Assembly: GCA_902770595.1 (NCBI GenBank)
Contig: CACXTQ010000005.1
Location: 48,218 to 112,217 of the forward strand
From: an uncultured Bacteroidales bacterium
GTDB lineage: Bacteria; Bacteroidota; Bacteroidia; Bacteroidales; UBA3663
Direction of reading: 5' to 3'
DNA length: 64,000 nucleotides
A program made the translations under genes and the position numbers. This document shows, piece by piece, positions 7,006-55,614 of the stretch (position 1 is its first letter; each line of letters begins with the position of its first letter). A model generated the notes under the pieces. The model searched no databases and was not told the origin of the DNA. It saw only the letters and a list, made by a program, of their open reading frames with translations.

Positions 7006-7384
7006 GCAGTAGGCCTGTCTGTCGCTCGCTCACACGCGAGAGGAAAGTCCGGGCTACACAGGGCTCCATGCCGGTTAACAGCCGGTAGGCGGCGACGTTT
7101 AGGTTAACGTAACAGAAAATAACCGCCCCACAAGGGGTAAGGGTGAAAAGGCGAGGTAAGAGCTCACCGCACACTTGGTAACAAGGCGTGGCTGTACGTC
7201 CCATGGGTTGTAAGATCATGTATACTGGTGGTTGGTACGTGTCGGAAACGATACTGTGTCCATGAAGGGCGGCCCGTCCAAGCCAGGGGGTAGATTGCTA
7301 AAGTGCGTCAGCAATGGCGAACTCAGATCAATGGCAGACGCCTGTCGAAAGACAGGGACGGAACCCGGCTTATAAGCCTACTGC
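7006..7384 (+). ncRNA. rnpB: RNase P RNA, bacterial type A
   Basis: Universal GAGGAAAGUCCGGGCU (P4 5' strand), ACAGAAAAUAACCGCC, GGUAAGGGUGAAAAGGCGAGGUAAGAGCUCACC, and ACGGAACCCGGCUUA (P4 3' strand). P1 pairing between gcagtaggc (7006..) and gcctactgc (..7384), followed by a T-run. Confidence 0.95.
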
Positions 7385-7404
7385 ATTTTTTATTAAAATC
7401 GAGA

Positions 7405-13894: not shown

Positions 13895-15511
13895 TTATTC
13901 GAATGCACCCATCTTGAGCATGCTTACCTCCTGCTGGGTGAGGTGACGCCAGCGGCCACGTGGCAGGTTCTTCTTGGTGAGTCCTGCGAAATAAACGCGG
14001 TCGAGCTTCACGACACGATAGCCGAGGTGCTCGAAGATACGACGCACGATACGGTTCTTGCCAGAGTGGATCTCGATACCAACCTGGTTCTTGTCCTCTT
14101 CGTTGGCATAAGCAATGGCATCAGCATGGATGGGACCATCGTCGAGTTCGATGCCTGCTGCAATGCGAGCGAGATCGGTCTCAGCCACATCCTTGTCAAG
14201 CCATACGTGATAGATCTTCTTCTTGATGTACTTGGGATGGGTGAGTTTCGAAGCGAGGTCACCATCGTTGGTGAGGAGCAGCACACCAGTGGTGTTGCGG
14301 TCGAGACGACCAACAGGGTAGATGCGCTCGCGGCTTGCATTGCGCACCAGATCCATAACGGTCTGACGGCCCTGTGGATCATCGCTGGTGGTGACGGTAT
14401 CCTTCGGCTTGTTGAGGAGTACATAGACCTTGCGCTCGAGGCTTACGGGCTGGTCGTTGAAGGTCACCTGATCCTTGCGGGTCACCTTGGTGCCGAGTTC
14501 GGTTACGACCTCACCGTTTACCTTGACCAAACCAGCTGCGATGTGCTCGTCGGCTTCACGACGCGAGCAAACGCCTGCATTGGCCAAATACTTGTTGAGA
14601 CGCAGTTCCTCATTCGGATCGACGATTGCCTCGGTGTATTCCACCGGACGATGTGGGTTGTAGCCCTGATGCTTGCGATTGGGTTTCTGCTTCTGAGGAC
14701 GTCCGAAACCGCCCTGCTGGGGACGACCGTAGCCACCCTGCTGGGGACGACCATAACCTCCCTGCTGGGGACGGCCATAACCGCCCTGCTGGGGACGACC
14801 GTAGCCACCCTGCTGGGGACGGCCATAACCACCCTGCTGACGACCGTAACCGCCCTGTGGACGGCCGTAGCCACCCTGCTGGGGACGCTGATAGCCGCGT
14901 GGCTGGTAACCGCCCTGTGGCTGATAGTTCTGCACATAGCCGCCTTCCTGTGGCTGCTGATTCTCCTGAGCCTTGCCTTCCTGTGGCTCGCCCTGGGGCT
15001 GCTGATAGCCCTGATTATCGTTGTAGCGTTGGTAGCCGTTATTGGGACGCTGTGGACGCTGGTAGCTCTGATAGCCGCCCTGCTCGCCATCCTGGTTGTA
15101 ACGACGATAGCCGCCCTGGGGACGCTGTGGACGCTGATAGCCGCCCTGGTAGCCGCCGCCCTGTGGACGCTGGTAGCCACCACCCTGCTGATAGCCGCCT
15201 TCGCCTTCCTGTGGGCGCTGATAGCCTTCGCCATCCTGCATTGGACGCTGGTAGCCGCCACCACGCTGATAGCCGCCACCACGCTGGTAGCCGCCACCGC
15301 GCTGATAACCGCCGCCACGACCATATCCGCTATAGTCGTTGGCGCCACCGCGCTGATAAGAGTTACGTGACTGTGGATCAAAGGCGGCTGCGTTACCGAA
15401 GCGGCTCTCGCCGATTCTGGGACGACGCTTTGGCGCCTGCTGTGATGCACCTTCTGGTGCTGCATTACCCTCCTGTGGGGTATTTGCCTGTGGGTTCTGA
15501 TTTTCTTCCAT
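13895..15511 (-). CDS. rluB: RluB-type 23S rRNA pseudouridine synthase with a roughly 290-aa G/Y/Q/R low-complexity N-terminal extension
   Basis: S4 domain [31 protein letters not shown] and core [22 protein letters not shown]. The track start at 15517 is a TTG; I prefer the ATG at 15511 (MEENQNPQ), 2 nt after the purB TGA. Confidence 0.85.
14699..14887. repeat. In-frame 24-bp tandem repeat (about 8 copies) encoding QQGGYGRP
   Basis: The unit ctggggacg(a/g)cc(g/a)ta(g/a)cc(a/g)ccctg is repeated. A second 18-bp repeat x4 (GGGYQR) lies at 15245..15316. Confidence 0.9.
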
Positions 15512-29768: not shown

Positions 29769-30434
29769 TTGAGTGAAGAGACTCTAACAAAACGACAAGC
29801 TATGAATCAAACGAATCGGCTCCACCTCTTGCTACTGTCCTTTGTCGTCATAGTCTTCATATGGTCAGCAATCAATGTGCAGGACACCTATCTCACCTGG
29901 GTACTTGAAGCTGCGCCTGTCATTATCGCACTACCTATCCTCCTCTTCACCTATAAGAAGTTCAAATTCCCCACTTCTATTTATGTCATTATCACCATTC
30001 ACATGGCGCTTTTGCTTGTCGGTGCACATTATTCTTATGCTAAAGTACCCCTTGGTGAATGGATGAAGGATTGGCTCGGCTTCGAACGCAACAACTATGA
30101 TAAGATAGGACACTTCACGCAAGGATTCACACCTGCTCTTGTTTCGGTGGAGATTATTCGTCGCTGCATCCCGCTTACATCTTTCAGGTGGATAAGTTTC
30201 TTCTCGTTCTGCATCTCAATGACCGTTGCAGCCCTCTACGAAATTATCGAATGGCTCTCGTCTTTGGGCAATCCGGAAGATACCGAGGCTTTCCTGGGCA
30301 CACAAGGATACATCTGGGATACACAGTCGGATATGTTCATGTGCCTTTGTGGAACAGTCATCGCACTTCTCCTATTTGGGGCCATTCATCCGTGGTCGTC
30401 GAAAACTCAAACAAGTGAAGAGCGTCAGTCGTGA
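29769..30434 (+). CDS. DUF2238 (YjdF-like) inner-membrane protein
   Basis: 221 aa from a TTG; an alternative ATG at 29802 gives MNQTNRL. Multiple TM spans and a DKIGHFTQGFTPAL block. Confidence 0.6.
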   Translation: MSEETLTKRQAMNQTNRLHLLLLSFVVIVFIWSAINVQDTYLTWVLEAAPVIIALPILLFTYKKFKFPTSIYVIITIHMALLLVGAHYSYAKVPLGEWMKDWLGFERNNYDKIGHFTQGFTPALVSVEIIRRCIPLTSFRWISFFSFCISMTVAALYEIIEWLSSLGNPEDTEAFLGTQGYIWDTQSDMFMCLCGTVIALLLFGAIHPWSSKTQTSEERQS

Positions 30435-30456
30435 CAACCTGCCTTATAACCTTTTT

Positions 30457-30812
30457 TGGCCAAGATTGGTTATTCTCCTCCAGAAGTATGACCTTTCTTG
30501 GCCAAGATTGGGTATGCGCCCACCGAAGAATGACCTTTCCTGGCCAAGATCGGGTATTCTTCCATCGCGGCATGACCTTTCTTGGCCAAGATCGGGTATT
30601 CTTCCATCGCGGCATGACCATTCCTGGCCAAGATTGGGTATGCGCCCATCGCGGCATGACCTTTTCTGGCCAATTGGGTATGCGCCCATCGTGGCATGAC
30701 CTTTCTTGGCCAAAATTGGGTATGCGCCCATCGTGGCATGACCTTTCTTGGCCAAGATTGGGTATAAAACAATCGCGGCATGACCAATCTTAGCCATAAT
30801 TGGTCATGCCGC
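30457..30812. repeat. 8-copy tandem array, 42-bp period, of CTTGGCCAAG-centred imperfect palindromes, closed by a perfect 14-bp-stem hairpin
   Basis: tggcca recurs at 30457, 30499, 30541, 30583, 30625, 30667, 30707 and 30749 (spacings 42,42,42,42,42,40,42). Terminal hairpin: gcggcatgaccaat (30775..30788) / attggtcatgccgc (30799..30812). Confidence 0.95.
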
Positions 30813-30867
30813 TGTTGTAGATTGCTGAATCTCTATTCAAAGCAGGTTTTCTACAATCATATCGTTG

Positions 30868-32676
30868 TCATTTCTGTTTATACCACTCCTGTAACACATA
30901 AAAGGCCTTTTTCTTTTCTCCGTTATCGGAGAAGAGCCCCTTGCGATTGTAGTAGTCCTGAACGCCATTGAGCACACGACGAGGAGAACGGAAGTCCTTC
31001 AGAATCCAGGGAGAGGTTCCTGCCAAGCCCTCAACCTTGTCGAGCATGGCGCAGTTCTCGCGATAGAGGTTCTCCTGGAATTCCTCCGTCCAGCGCTGAT
31101 TCTTCTCCCCATGAAGTCCATATTTTGCGCCACCGCCGAACTCGCTGACGATGACAGGCTTGTCGTAAGGAATTTCCCATGACATCTTCGCCGCATCATT
31201 CACATCACGATACCAGCCGATGTATTGGTTGAAACTTACTACATCGACATACTCGTGCATATTGTCCTGCAGACGATTCTTGAAGTTGGAAGCCGATGTA
31301 ACCTCCATCGCCATGGATATGAGACGTGAGTTGTCGAGCGAACGAGCGTGCAGCGCCAAACGACTCAGGAACTGGTCGCGTTCGGGCGAATGGGGCGTTT
31401 CGTTGGCAATGCTCCAGATGATGACATTGGCGCGGTTCTGATCGCGCAGAATCATGTCGGTCAACTGGCGCTCGGCATTCTTGTAGGTGTCAGGATTGGT
31501 CCATGCAATGGTCCAATAGACAGGAATCTCCGACCAGACGAGAATGCCCATTCGCTCTGCCTCGCGCACGGCATATTCGTTATGGGGATAATGAGCAAGG
31601 CGAACGAAGTTACAGCCCAGTTCCTTTGCCCATGAAAGCAGCGTGTGGGCATCTTCGGTCGAATTGGCACGTCCTCCACCATTGGGCTTCTCCTCTTGGA
31701 TGCTGATTCCTTTGAGGAAGATAGGTTGACCATTGAGCAGCAACTGTTTGCCACGTGTCTCGATGGTGCGGAAGCCAATCTCATCCTTGATAACTTCTTC
31801 GCCCAACCGAATCTCAACCTGATAGAGTTTGGGATTCTCGGGTGACCAAAGCTGCACTTTCTTGGCCTTCATGGTAACTAAAGCCGTGCCTTCATTATCG
31901 GTCGTAACAACCTGATGCAGTTTCAATTCCGGAACATCGAGCGTGACTTGTTTTCCTGCCTCCGCCTTATTGAGTTTGACGCTGAATGTGACGGGACGAG
32001 CGCCCCGTTTGTCAACCTCCAAACTGGCGAGACGGAGGCGATAATTCTCTACATACGTGGGTGAAACATCGATGAGCAGCACGTCGCGTGTGATGCCGCC
32101 ATAGTTCCACCAGTCGAAGATTTGGGTAGGAACGTTCTCAGCATGGCGCTTGTTATCGACCTTGAGGATGACGAAGTTTTCTCCCTCCTTCAACTCATCA
32201 GTCACATCGTAGTTGAAAGGCGTGAAACCTCCGACATGGTGTCCGACAAACTTGCCATTGACATAGACATGTGCATCGTAGTTGACTGCACCGAAATAGA
32301 GCAGGGTGCGATGGTCTCCGTTGGGACGCCAGTCGAAAGAGCGCTTGAACCACACCGTACCCTCATAGAAGAACAATCGTTCATCCTGCGTATTCCAATC
32401 GCCAGGCACCTGCATGGTCGGAGCCTTGTCGAAGTCGTACTCGATGAGGTCTTCGGGACGCTGAGGCTTGGCATTGACGAAAAAGCCCCAACGCATAGGC
32501 TTCATACGATAGTCGTAATAGCCCTCCTCCTGCACATCGACAATATAGTTCCAGGAGCCATTGAGCGAAGTTGTCTGACGTGCCAATACATTTGCCACTT
32601 GTGGCACCTCGTCGGCCAAGGCTAAAGCAGTCGACGAAAAGCATAGAACCGCAAGCGACAACAAAACATTTTTCAT
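30868..32676 (-). CDS. Glycoside hydrolase family 2 (beta-glucuronidase/beta-galactosidase-like)
   Basis: Start trimmed to MKNVLLSLAVLCFSSTALA (ATG 32676). Sugar-binding, Ig-like and TIM-barrel order; NFVRLAHYPH and WSIANE (acid/base Glu) blocks. Confidence 0.85.
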   Translation of the reverse strand: MKNVLLSLAVLCFSSTALALADEVPQVANVLARQTTSLNGSWNYIVDVQEEGYYDYRMKPMRWGFFVNAKPQRPEDLIEYDFDKAPTMQVPGDWNTQDERLFFYEGTVWFKRSFDWRPNGDHRTLLYFGAVNYDAHVYVNGKFVGHHVGGFTPFNYDVTDELKEGENFVILKVDNKRHAENVPTQIFDWWNYGGITRDVLLIDVSPTYVENYRLRLASLEVDKRGARPVTFSVKLNKAEAGKQVTLDVPELKLHQVVTTDNEGTALVTMKAKKVQLWSPENPKLYQVEIRLGEEVIKDEIGFRTIETRGKQLLLNGQPIFLKGISIQEEKPNGGGRANSTEDAHTLLSWAKELGCNFVRLAHYPHNEYAVREAERMGILVWSEIPVYWTIAWTNPDTYKNAERQLTDMILRDQNRANVIIWSIANETPHSPERDQFLSRLALHARSLDNSRLISMAMEVTSASNFKNRLQDNMHEYVDVVSFNQYIGWYRDVNDAAKMSWEIPYDKPVIVSEFGGGAKYGLHGEKNQRWTEEFQENLYRENCAMLDKVEGLAGTSPWILKDFRSPRRVLNGVQDYYNRKGLFSDNGEKKKAFYVLQEWYKQK

Positions 32677-33846: not shown

Positions 33847-34016
33847 GATATTAAGGGATATTTGGGGATATTAAGGGATATTTGGGGACGTTACCTTCGC
33901 CATGTAGAAGATGGGGAAAGCTAACAATTGTTAATTGTTATATTAATTGTTAATTGAACAAACGTCCCTTAGAATCCCTTAAAATCTCTTAGAATCACTT
34001 AAAATCCCCTAGAATT
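33847..34016. repeat. Composite 170-bp imperfect palindrome built from 10-bp words around a TTAATTG core
   Basis: Left arm: gatattaagggatatttggg x2 (33847..33886). Centre: caattgttaattgttatattaattgttaattg (33925..33956). Right arm: cccttagaat|cccttaaaat|ctcttagaat|cacttaaaat|cccctagaat (33966..34015). ggacgtt and aacgtcc mark the inner arm ends. Confidence 0.85.
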
Positions 34017-38652: not shown

Positions 38653-39900
38653 ATGATGAAACGTTTGATTCTAGCTGCGCTGGCAGTGGCAGTGACACTT
38701 CCCGCAGCAATCTCGACCCAGGCTCAGGACGACGTCTATTACAGCCGTAAGAACAGCCGCAAGCAGGCTTACGAATCGACTTCGAACGACGTTTGGTCCA
38801 CCAAAGCCAATGACGATTGGGACGTTGACGCCTACAACCGTCGGTCGTCTTCGTTCAACACTACTCCCGAAATAACACTGCAGAGCGACAGCCTGATGCT
38901 TTCGGCTCAACCTAAGACTGTCCCCGATACCATCTATGTGGTAGAGCAGTATTATAACAGCAACCGTATTCGTCGTTTCCACAATCCACGCTTCACCTGG
39001 TGGATGTGGGACCCCTGGTACGACGTAGCCTACTGGGATCCATACTTCTGGGATTACTGCTACTGGGATCCCTGGTGGTATGTCACCCCCGCCTTCGGTT
39101 TTCACTGGGGCAACTGGTGGTATGGTTGGAACTACGGCTACTATACCGGATGGTACGGCGGGTGGTATTCTCCCTTCTATCATCCCTATCCCCACTACTG
39201 GGGTCTCTACGGGTGTGGTGGAGGCGGTGGCTACCGCAACAACATGGGCGGACACTATGCCCACTATGATGGGCATGGAATGGGGAATCACTATGGTCGA
39301 AACGGCTTCCATAGCGGACGCGATAATACGCGCACATCTTCAATCTCCACCCAACCGGGCATTGCCAGCCGAAATGGTGCCAACCTTCGCAACAGCAACA
39401 TGCGAGGCGATATGCGCCGCGGCAATCGCGGACGTGATGGCGGCAACGTGGCAACACGTGGTGGCAACGGTACTCGCGGCGGTAACGGATCGCGCGGTAC
39501 TATAGGCGCAGATGGCAGAACATCCACTCGTCCTGGATCGGGCAACAACCCTGCCGTGAGCACGCGCAGCAATCGCAACTTCGACAACAGCAGTGCTCGG
39601 CGTAGCGCCAATGGTGTACGCCAATCCGACGACGGACGCACAAGCACACGCCAAACTGGTGTTAGCGGTACCCGCAGCAGTTCACGCGGCAGTGCCAGTG
39701 TCAGCGGAAGAGGCGTTGGCGGCTTTCACATCGGCGGTGGCGGCTACAGCGGCGGAAGCTCTCGCAGCAGCGGTGGCGGCTATAGTGGCGGCACACGCAG
39801 TGGCGGTGGCGGTGGCGGCGGCAGCTACAGCGGCGGCGGTGGCGGCGGTGGCAGCCACAGCGGTGGCGGCGGTGGACACAGCGGCGGCGGTCGTCGATAA
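38653..39900 (+). CDS. Secreted low-complexity protein (W/Y/P-rich core, then R/G/S/N-rich and poly-Gly tail)
   Basis: 415 aa. Signal peptide ...AISTQAQ; YFWDYCYWDPWWYVTPAFGFHWGNWWYGWNYGYYTGWYGGWY; ends GGGGGGSYSGGGGGGGSHSGGGGGHSGGGRR. Confidence 0.6.
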   Translation: MMKRLILAALAVAVTLPAAISTQAQDDVYYSRKNSRKQAYESTSNDVWSTKANDDWDVDAYNRRSSSFNTTPEITLQSDSLMLSAQPKTVPDTIYVVEQYYNSNRIRRFHNPRFTWWMWDPWYDVAYWDPYFWDYCYWDPWWYVTPAFGFHWGNWWYGWNYGYYTGWYGGWYSPFYHPYPHYWGLYGCGGGGGYRNNMGGHYAHYDGHGMGNHYGRNGFHSGRDNTRTSSISTQPGIASRNGANLRNSNMRGDMRRGNRGRDGGNVATRGGNGTRGGNGSRGTIGADGRTSTRPGSGNNPAVSTRSNRNFDNSSARRSANGVRQSDDGRTSTRQTGVSGTRSSSRGSASVSGRGVGGFHIGGGGYSGGSSRSSGGGYSGGTRSGGGGGGGSYSGGGGGGGSHSGGGGGHSGGGRR

Positions 39901-48193: not shown

Positions 48194-48244
48194 CACGCAA
48201 ATTTGACAATCGAAACTAACAAACTTTGCTGCCGCGTTTTCATA

Positions 48245-55558: not shown

Positions 55559-55614
55559 CTAATTGTTAATTGTTAATTATTAATTGTTAATTGATAATTG
55601 TTAATTGATAATGG
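55559..55614. repeat. TTAATTG heptamer tract (about 8 units) filling the oadA-oadB intergenic spacer
   Basis: aattg ttaattg ttaatta ttaattg ttaattg ataattg ttaattg ataATGg. The last unit contains the oadB start codon. Confidence 0.9.

Follow-up and report, generated by a model that had tools for sequence, protein, structure and literature searches.

The intergenic array at 30446..30812 of the 64,000-nucleotide window analysed here (the whole stretch, positions 48,218 to 112,217 of contig CACXTQ010000005.1, assembly GCA_902770595.1, from an uncultured Bacteroidales bacterium) consists of nine head-to-tail 42-bp units, the last of which is a perfect hairpin. It is one member of an apparently undescribed, lineage-specific family of modular interspersed repeats in rumen Bacteroidales; no prior description of such a family was found in the literature. 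The reading we favour, with a probability of roughly 0.55, is that the array is a lineage-specific modular interspersed repeat element whose terminal unit has been co-opted at this locus as the terminator of a GH2 glycoside hydrolase gene. The element would be a polar block of about ten 42-bp units: it opens with a distinctive first unit, continues with inner units that are asymmetric and quasi-palindromic, and closes with a last unit that is almost a perfect palindrome and a tail formed by a decayed unit. The entire block, and not the single unit, would have spread to many intergenic sites in the ancestor of the clade, as a non-autonomous element akin to the MITEs (miniature inverted-repeat transposable elements). 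In the window the element fills the gap between two convergent genes, where the terminal hairpin and the A-rich linker (a U-tract when the minus strand is read) would terminate GH2 transcription, to judge from the sequence.

The array in the window

Read in register, the unit is a 28-bp core, ATGACC-N3-CTTGGCCAAG-N3-GG(G/T)TAT, followed by a 14-bp linker. The parts of the array are as follows.

30446..30487, + strand: unit 1, with core ATAACCTTTTTTGGCCAAGATTGGTTAT and a linker, TCTCCTCCAGAAGT, peculiar to the first unit
30488..30779, + strand: inner units 2-8 read in register, each a 28-bp core, ATGACC-N3-CTTGGCCAAG-N3-GGGTAT, and a 14-bp linker
30656..30695, + strand: unit 6, 40 bp long owing to a 2-bp deletion
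30775..30812, no strand assigned: terminal unit 9, a 14-bp perfect stem (GCGGCATGACCAAT / ATTGGTCATGCCGC) with a 10-nt loop
30813..30867, + strand: tail, a linker-like stretch and a decayed unit (TGTTGTAGATTGCTGAATCTCTATTCAAAGCAGG...)

Tandem Repeats Finder reports a period of 42 over 30449..30803, with 8.5 copies, 85% matches and a score of 409, and a 27-nt unit pattern allowing up to three mismatches gives seven matches, all within the array, and none in 100 shuffles. The motif TGGCCA lies exactly at the eight positions listed by the first-pass annotation, which had been made from the sequence alone (30457, 30499, 30541, 30583, 30625, 30667, 30707 and 30749), in steps of 42, 42, 42, 42, 42, 40 and 42 bp. 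That annotation had counted eight units; the array and its period of 42 are real, but the count becomes nine once the first and last units are included. The perfect 14-bp-stem hairpin that it placed at 30775..30812 is also there, the arms 30775-30788 and 30799-30812 being complementary over all 14 nt. A perfect 10-bp palindrome in each unit, however, does not hold up: CTTGGCCAAG is exact in only three units and has one mismatch in four. Nor do two linker variants alternate as proposed. They come instead in blocks, the order by unit being TCTCC, GCGCCC, TCTTCC, TCTTCC, GCGCCC three times and AAAACA, and the whole linker of unit 8 is the A-rich ATAAAACAATCGCGGC. Beyond the hairpin the element runs on as its tail to about 30860. 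The unit-pattern search found no further copy of the unit elsewhere in the window. Ten-mers of the hairpin arm are indeed present at 1895 and 58427, as had been remarked, but there is no unit at either place, and they are chance matches.

A dispersed family in rumen Bacteroidales

The strict 24-nt pattern ATGACCNNTYYTGGCCAARATYGG was scanned against 185,579 species-representative genomes. It matches 81 stretches, 78 of which belong to eight rumen Bacteroidales species represented by metagenome-assembled genomes (MAGs), with 5-15 per MAG; the hosts include water buffalo, sheep and reindeer, and a RUG rumen bin is also among them. The two matches outside the clade, in Microgenomates and Caulobacteraceae records, are the number that chance predicts. 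Matches at one locus are spaced by multiples of 42 bp, and the family is recovered from independent assemblies (ENA, JGI and NCBI). The genome search suggested by the first-pass annotation thus finds the unit dispersed in a rumen Bacteroidales clade, and the possibility that it occurs nowhere else, which would have spoken against a repeat family, can be set aside.

At these genome loci every array is intergenic and lies beside unrelated housekeeping genes. Neighbours recognised by eye are ClpA-, RecN-, Asd- and GlgB-like, and those recognised by Pfam include ETF, GH97 and semialdehyde dehydrogenase, among others. No neighbour gene recurs, the 80 non-redundant neighbouring proteins giving 94 diverse Pfam families, and the same survey shows no par genes near the arrays. 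Since the arrays occupy many chromosomal loci beside housekeeping genes, a plasmid-type iteron or centromere array, as the first-pass annotation had entertained, is unsupported. Over 654 kb, 526 of 531 core-like sites lie inside arrays, and a solitary unit is essentially never seen. Arrays stand between divergent genes in 12 of 59 contexts; where the neighbouring genes are in tandem, 9 of 25 arrays run antisense to the two of them. A search of viral_contigs gave no match to the unit, and a phage origin was rejected on this ground.

Anatomy shared by unrelated loci

Array length was determined by lag-identity, which overestimates it by about one unit; the value is 9-12 x 42 bp in 69 of the 80 complete arrays. 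The modal size in the genomes is about ten units, and an independent metagenome set of the type-C arrays described below peaks at 10-13. Polarity is uniform within each array, counts of G.T-type against A.C-type units being, for example, 8:0 or 0:9. Over the inner units, the pair 3-26 is G.T in 242 cases, A-T in 60, G-C in 27 and A.C in none, and the pair 4-25 is an A.G mismatch in 40%, a compensated C-G being rare (132 vs 7).

The ends of the arrays are recognisable from locus to locus. The first-unit linker, TTCTTC-N4-GAAG or, in degenerate form, TTCTYC-N4-GAAG, is found again at unrelated loci, and the last unit carries GGTCAT and is the best palindrome of its array. The tail, about 35-45 nt long, has the consensus.Ct.C..TTtgAGAaaG.t.aTTc.c..t.c.aA over 40 non-redundant loci and reads as an additional linker and decayed unit. 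Unlike the first-unit linker, the last unit and the tail, the inner linkers are array-specific; within one array the 14-nt linkers have about 0.9 identity to the array consensus. Because the end features are common to unrelated loci while the inner linkers are not, dispersal of the entire block of some ten units, with homogenisation of its inner units afterwards, would explain the arrays most simply. A weak terminal symmetry, CAAAYC-N-GGCATGACC ... GGTCATGCC-N-GTTTGA, is seen in a subset of arrays. The Bacteroidetes promoter motif TAnnTTTG is not enriched at array ends.

The family has several unit types. Tandem Repeats Finder applied to the loci reveals both pure arrays of the window's type, type A, and mosaic arrays, in which type A alternates with a second 42-bp unit, type B (AAGCACTCTGACGGCCGTCAGAGTGCTT), to give periods of 84 or 126. 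A third unit, type C, reads GCATGTCC..AACGTTCG..GGACATGC, and a two-unit type-C pattern is present in at least 120 metagenome contigs. Types A, B and C, though unrelated in sequence, all keep the period of 42 bp. Individual 40- and 43-bp units do exist and break the reading frame.

Three observations were made in passing at individual loci. A 41-bp tandem repeat, GCAATATTGTACTGCTTGTGTACACTTGATACAATCTCGTC, adjoins some 42-bp arrays (L008 4196-4466; L028 942-1284; L032 1442-1520). An open reading frame (ORF) of 162 aa, at two paralogous loci per genome (L009, L039, L041, L042, L045, L049 and L066), has its final codons and stop codon within the array tail and so seemingly reads into the element; it was the sole candidate for a recurrent neighbour and was rejected as a partner gene, as it amounts to two paralogous loci, and its AraC/HTH-like appearance by eye was not confirmed by a domain search. 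In MAG RGIG6006, L033 (7876-7925), in the flank of an L006-type locus, holds a terminal unit and about one third of a B unit alone, and L037 on the same contig holds the longest array, of about 16 units. A rearrangement whose breakpoints fall within arrays may account for this.

Locus history

Loci L052, L040 and L071 are orthologous to the window locus, with flanks 88-95% identical. Their first unit, last two units and tail are as in the window and their inner units differ, the totals being 10, 10 and 11 units, respectively, against nine in the window. The terminal stem is retained: in L040 a compensatory double change turns a G-C pair into T-A, and in L052 a G-C pair becomes G-T. Contig L084, whose flanks match those of the window at 100% over 680 bp on either side, has ten full units, none of them of 40 bp; the window array has nine units, one of 40 bp. 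Either variation between strains or a collapse in assembly accounts for the difference. Nine units are also found in L086-L088, in a composition unlike that of the window, and contigs L083 and L085 stop inside the array. Unit number, which the first-pass annotation had proposed to compare among strains, is thus variable among both strains and species.

In L090 and L091, whose DUF2238 protein is 82% identical, a 42-bp array occupies the same site between the DUF2238 and GH2 genes, but its unit is of another type, GCATGTCCGCTCTGTTCCCTTGGAGGACATGC. The L090 array, at 2130-2480, has the arms GCATGTCC/GGACATGC around a new centre, and the GH2 gene there has its own canonical terminator hairpin. At DUF2238 identities of 70% or less, synteny is gone. 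These comparisons show that array copies are inherited vertically while inner units are homogenised, gained or lost, presumably through unequal exchange or slippage.

Folding and the role of the last unit

The genes and the terminator-like site around the window array are the following.

29802..30434, + strand: DUF2238 membrane protein gene, its stop codon 11 nt upstream of unit 1
30868..32676, - strand: GH2 glycoside hydrolase gene, convergent with the DUF2238 gene
30765..30812, - strand: terminator-like site for GH2, a hairpin then GAUUGUUUUA, 56 nt past the GH2 stop codon

The array fills the gap between convergent genes, as originally described, with ORF stops at 30434 (+) and 30868 (-), and the tail at 30813..30867 is, on the opposite strand, the 3' untranslated region (UTR) of GH2. 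For the terminal unit the predicted folding energy is -24.9 kcal/mol (+ strand) or -27.5 kcal/mol (- strand), with z from -4.8 to -6.6, the minus-strand hairpin having the z of -6.6. A single inner unit of the window reaches only -5.9 kcal/mol (z +0.9) and is no better than shuffled sequence. The whole region gives -180.3 and -181.4 kcal/mol on the two strands, z -9 against shuffles, and this strong folding arises because different units pair with each other.

A terminator scan of the minus strand returns a 15-pair stem with eight G-C pairs, followed by GAUUGUUUUA. The compensatory change in L040, which preserves the stem, also speaks for use as a terminator. An extended stem with a U-rich tract on the opposite strand is found in seven arrays from three locus groups. 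Where the context is known, the downstream gene is convergent in 6/6 arrays of this configuration, which occurs in 0/27 arrays whose downstream gene is co-oriented. As the configuration is confined to convergent contexts, the terminal unit is taken here as a GH2 terminator that arose by local co-option; the last unit of the window array thus probably doubles as the terminator of that gene.

Weighing the interspersed-element reading

Several results speak against a modular element that spread as a block. Neither a transposase partner nor clear terminal inverted repeats came to light, nor did a target-site duplication or a pair of filled and empty sites, and the Pfam survey of neighbours found no insertion sequence (IS) partner in the array flanks. 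No empty site occurs among the sampled loci; orthologues down to 82% protein identity all hold an array. Mobility of the element is inferred solely from dispersal and shared ends. The constant 42-bp period over types A, B and C, together with a size near ten units, hints at function. The 28-bp core is 0.89 identical between 13 independent arrays and the 14-bp linker 0.52, a constraint that a dead selfish element would not need; the 0.89 is partly inflated by the pattern used to collect units, which fixes some core positions. The terminator configuration is found in only three independent locus groups and so cannot account for the family. Finally, the assemblies are all short-read metagenomes, in which array lengths could be truncated or collapsed, and two contigs break within the window-locus array.

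Alternative explanations

The alternative that survives best, although we consider it unlikely, is that the arrays serve the host as phased sites for a sequence-specific DNA-binding protein, one site per 28-bp core. With 42 bp equal to four helical turns, about ten sites would lie on one face of the helix, as in sopC of plasmid F, and their role would be nucleoid organisation, insulation or titration. The geometry is that of an iteron or centromere array, namely direct repeats at whole helical turns (42 bp in A, B and C) with CTTGGCCAAG at the centre. The conservation of the core while linkers drifted indicates an ongoing sequence-specific constraint, and the conserved positions include the asymmetric, non-palindromic T26. 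The absence of hairpins in the inner units, the period fixed in all unit types, the modal number of about ten and the retention of arrays at orthologous sites in all sampled species point the same way. However, unrelated A and B units alternate in one array, which would need two proteins or structure-based recognition; no binding-protein gene recurs among the neighbours; and arrays occur in every kind of intergenic context. The core figure on which the argument draws also shares in the inflation mentioned above. The phased binding array of the first-pass annotation thus stays alive as a minority reading, for which the better-conserved core speaks, but its plasmid-type form does not.

Doubtful, and ranking below the binding array, is a true system of repetitive extragenic palindromes (REPs) and their associated tyrosine transposase (RAYT). 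The units would be cognate repeats of a Bacteroidetes-type RAYT (subclass 2.6, with 'atypical' REPs lacking GTAG) encoded elsewhere, whose single-stranded-DNA cleavage and joining would have built the arrays. Bacteroidetes RAYTs with atypical, weakly structured REPs have been described (PMC6006769), so that the 42-bp arrays may have a distant partner. Also in favour, type-A polarity follows local GC skew, as that of single-stranded-DNA elements does, in 54/65 arrays and 21/28 locus groups (p = 0.0125), the array-linked component of the skew being -0.05 once the coding-strand effect is removed. The type-C arrays fail to reproduce this bias (33:17, with opposite sign), and orientation by replication strand is therefore kept as a lead only. 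Of the RAYT association that the first-pass annotation had suggested looking for there was no sign in the DNA covered: no RAYT-like gene was found in about 1.4 Mb of array-flanking DNA, a motif scan of the window and of that DNA, around some 200 arrays, found no HUH/Y1 ORF, and phmmer with E. coli RayT gave a single spurious match to a low-complexity ORF. Single units and inverted dimers are absent among the 531 core-like sites, all units of an array have one orientation, and neither GTAG nor a CGTC foot occurs in the unit and linker consensus of 13 independent arrays. The window tail has a GTAG at 30820 that other tails do not conserve.

Regarding skew itself, the + strand of the window is C-rich (negative GC skew) over nearly all 64 kb regardless of gene orientation, and the cumulative skew for sixteen 4-kb bins reaches -0.77. 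A slight excess of C is also found on the coding strands of these genomes.

A further proposal, which we rate lower than the RAYT system, is that the arrays are host cis-elements of a new class. They would be polar blocks of controlled size (about 10 x 42 bp), with 28-bp cores that a dedicated trans-acting factor would recognise by sequence. The blocks would possibly be replication-oriented, the types A, B and C and the L090 variant would co-evolve with the factor in each lineage, and the blocks would act as chromosomal insulators, domain boundaries or barriers polar to forks or transcription.

Lower again in our estimate, and improbable, is action of the array as RNA, either as a multi-stem-loop 3' UTR that would stabilise or terminate the upstream mRNA, as E. 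coli REPs do, or as an independent non-coding RNA. The whole region folds far more stably than shuffles, the array begins 11 nt past the DUF2238 stop codon, and the inner-unit asymmetry is G.T on one strand and never A.C, which in RNA of that strand would be a G.U pair and tolerated. However, the two strands fold equally well, single inner units fold at shuffle level, the A.G mismatch in 40% of inner units at pair 4-25 is rarely compensated, and 9/25 arrays between tandem genes run antisense to the genes on either side. Descent from a single ancestor with a G.T pair explains the G.T pattern. Rfam at gathering thresholds matches only RNase P, elsewhere in the window; with E-values up to 10, the array gives weak microRNA-precursor matches and one snoRNA match, far below gathering scores. 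No Bacteroidetes-type promoter motif is enriched beside the arrays.

Least probable by far is that the array is a protein-coding repeat of 14-aa units, a locus-specific variable-number tandem repeat (VNTR) or an artefact of assembly. Every frame is open, and ORFs of 155-169 aa have been placed on arrays by public gene callers, but no frame is preferred, the loci are many, dispersed and drawn from independent ENA, JGI and NCBI assemblies, and the 40- and 43-bp units disrupt the frame, so that the array is not coding. The five ORFs across the window array (99-157 aa) are accordingly spurious, as had been judged at first sight. Public gene calls on L082/L084 7896-8363 and L090 2179-2688 are likewise spurious ORFs of 155-169 aa with no Pfam match. 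A CRISPR array was rejected as well, there being no unique spacers and the 14-nt linkers being homogeneous within an array.

Comparison with known systems

The closest architecture to that of the interspersed element favoured here is found in the same order, Bacteroidales. In BrickBuilt and MITE464/PgRS of Porphyromonas gingivalis, described by Klein et al. (2015; PMC4596501), a 23- or 41-nt minisatellite lies between a leader and a tail; a genome has 10-20 copies, and these are intergenic in every case. Compared by description, the two systems share end modules around an uninterrupted minisatellite, strain-variable copy number and loci conserved between related species. The 42-bp family has the layout of a MITE with an internal minisatellite: distinct ends flank an uninterrupted repeat, and the element is multi-copy (5-15 loci per MAG) and intergenic. 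The P. gingivalis elements differ in having long non-repetitive leaders and tails (up to about 300 nt) that end in IS5-type terminal inverted repeats, whereas the ends of the 42-bp family are modified units and neither an IS-type repeat nor a partner IS was found. BrickBuilt elements carry between 1 and 23 repeats, while the 42-bp family clusters near 10 and has quasi-palindromic units of several types with a single fixed period. The unit length of the GCAATATTGTACTGCTTGTGTACACTTGATACAATCTCGTC repeat that adjoins some arrays equals that of the 41-nt repeats reported for MITE464/PgRS (PMC4596501).

With the REPs and bacterial interspersed mosaic elements (BIMEs) of E. coli (PU types Y, Z1 and Z2) the family shares dispersed extragenic units that derive from palindromes and are clustered into mosaics combining different unit types; in BIME-2, arrays of up to about 12 units occur. 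REP/BIME elements can end transcripts or protect 3' ends, as is predicted from sequence for the 42-bp family. However, BIME units alternate in orientation, whereas those of the 42-bp family are all direct with a period of exactly 42 bp. BIMEs have a GTAG foot, mostly come singly or in twos, stay clear of divergent promoter regions and border a RAYT gene; in the 42-bp family the inner units do not fold, GTAG is lacking and no RAYT lies near the arrays examined. The first-pass annotation had offered a REP/BIME analogue, and given a dispersed, intergenic, multi-copy family with variable unit number the label 'REP/BIME-like' is fair to that extent. The features that define REPs and BIMEs are not those of this family, and the label is right in spirit and wrong in its defining details.

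Pneumococcal BOX elements have the structure boxA-(boxB)n-boxC, usually with 0-8 boxB; complementarity between boxA and boxC folds the complete element into a single long hairpin. They resemble the present family as modular interspersed intergenic elements in which a middle module of about 45 bp is repeated between distinct ends, in an unrelated lineage. The sopC locus of plasmid F has 12 x 43-bp repeats, each with a SopB-binding inverted repeat, at a single locus beside sopAB. The geometry is almost identical in the two cases, with some 10-12 direct repeats, 42-43 bp long, that have a short palindrome at their centres; the 42-bp family differs in occupying 5-15 or more chromosomal loci per genome. 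Mycobacterial interspersed repetitive units (MIRUs) are similarly dispersed intergenic minisatellites, with units of 40-100 bp and strain-variable copy number, but they are oriented with adjacent genes, carry small coupled ORFs and are not palindromic.

Significance

Interspersed palindromic repeats such as REP/BIME, BOX and Correia elements are well studied in Proteobacteria and Firmicutes and barely described in Bacteroidales, which dominate gut and rumen communities. Several regularities set the present family apart from the classical ones: unrelated unit types share an exact 42-bp period, arrays most often have about ten units, polarity is fixed and the end units are specialised, and a sister lineage has a different unit type at an orthologous site. 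Should a trans-acting partner exist, the family would lend itself well to studies of how repeat arrays are assembled, sized and co-opted. In practical terms, the arrays break short-read assemblies and put spurious ORFs of 100-170 aa into public annotations of rumen MAGs, and they could serve as VNTR markers for strain typing.

Other features of the window

An AT-rich heptamer (TAATTGT / AATTGTT) is repeated in tandem 3-8 times at intergenic 1955-1997, 33926-33956 and 55560-55612, the last directly upstream of an ORF starting at 55605. At 33847-34015 the heptamer array is bracketed by 10/20-bp tandem repeats, two of GATATTAAGGGATATTTGGG on the left and five of the TCCCTTAGAA type on the right; the two sets are approximately reverse complements and give the intergenic region a composite inverted structure. 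In-frame coding minisatellites lie at 14693-14887, 15245-15319 and 39728-39891. Their periods are 24/72 bp and 18/36 bp in the ORFs around 13.9-15.5 kb, and GGC-rich repeats occur within the ORF at 38653-39900. A full-length bacterial RNase P RNA of class A is encoded at 7006-7388 (+), with a score of 239 bits.

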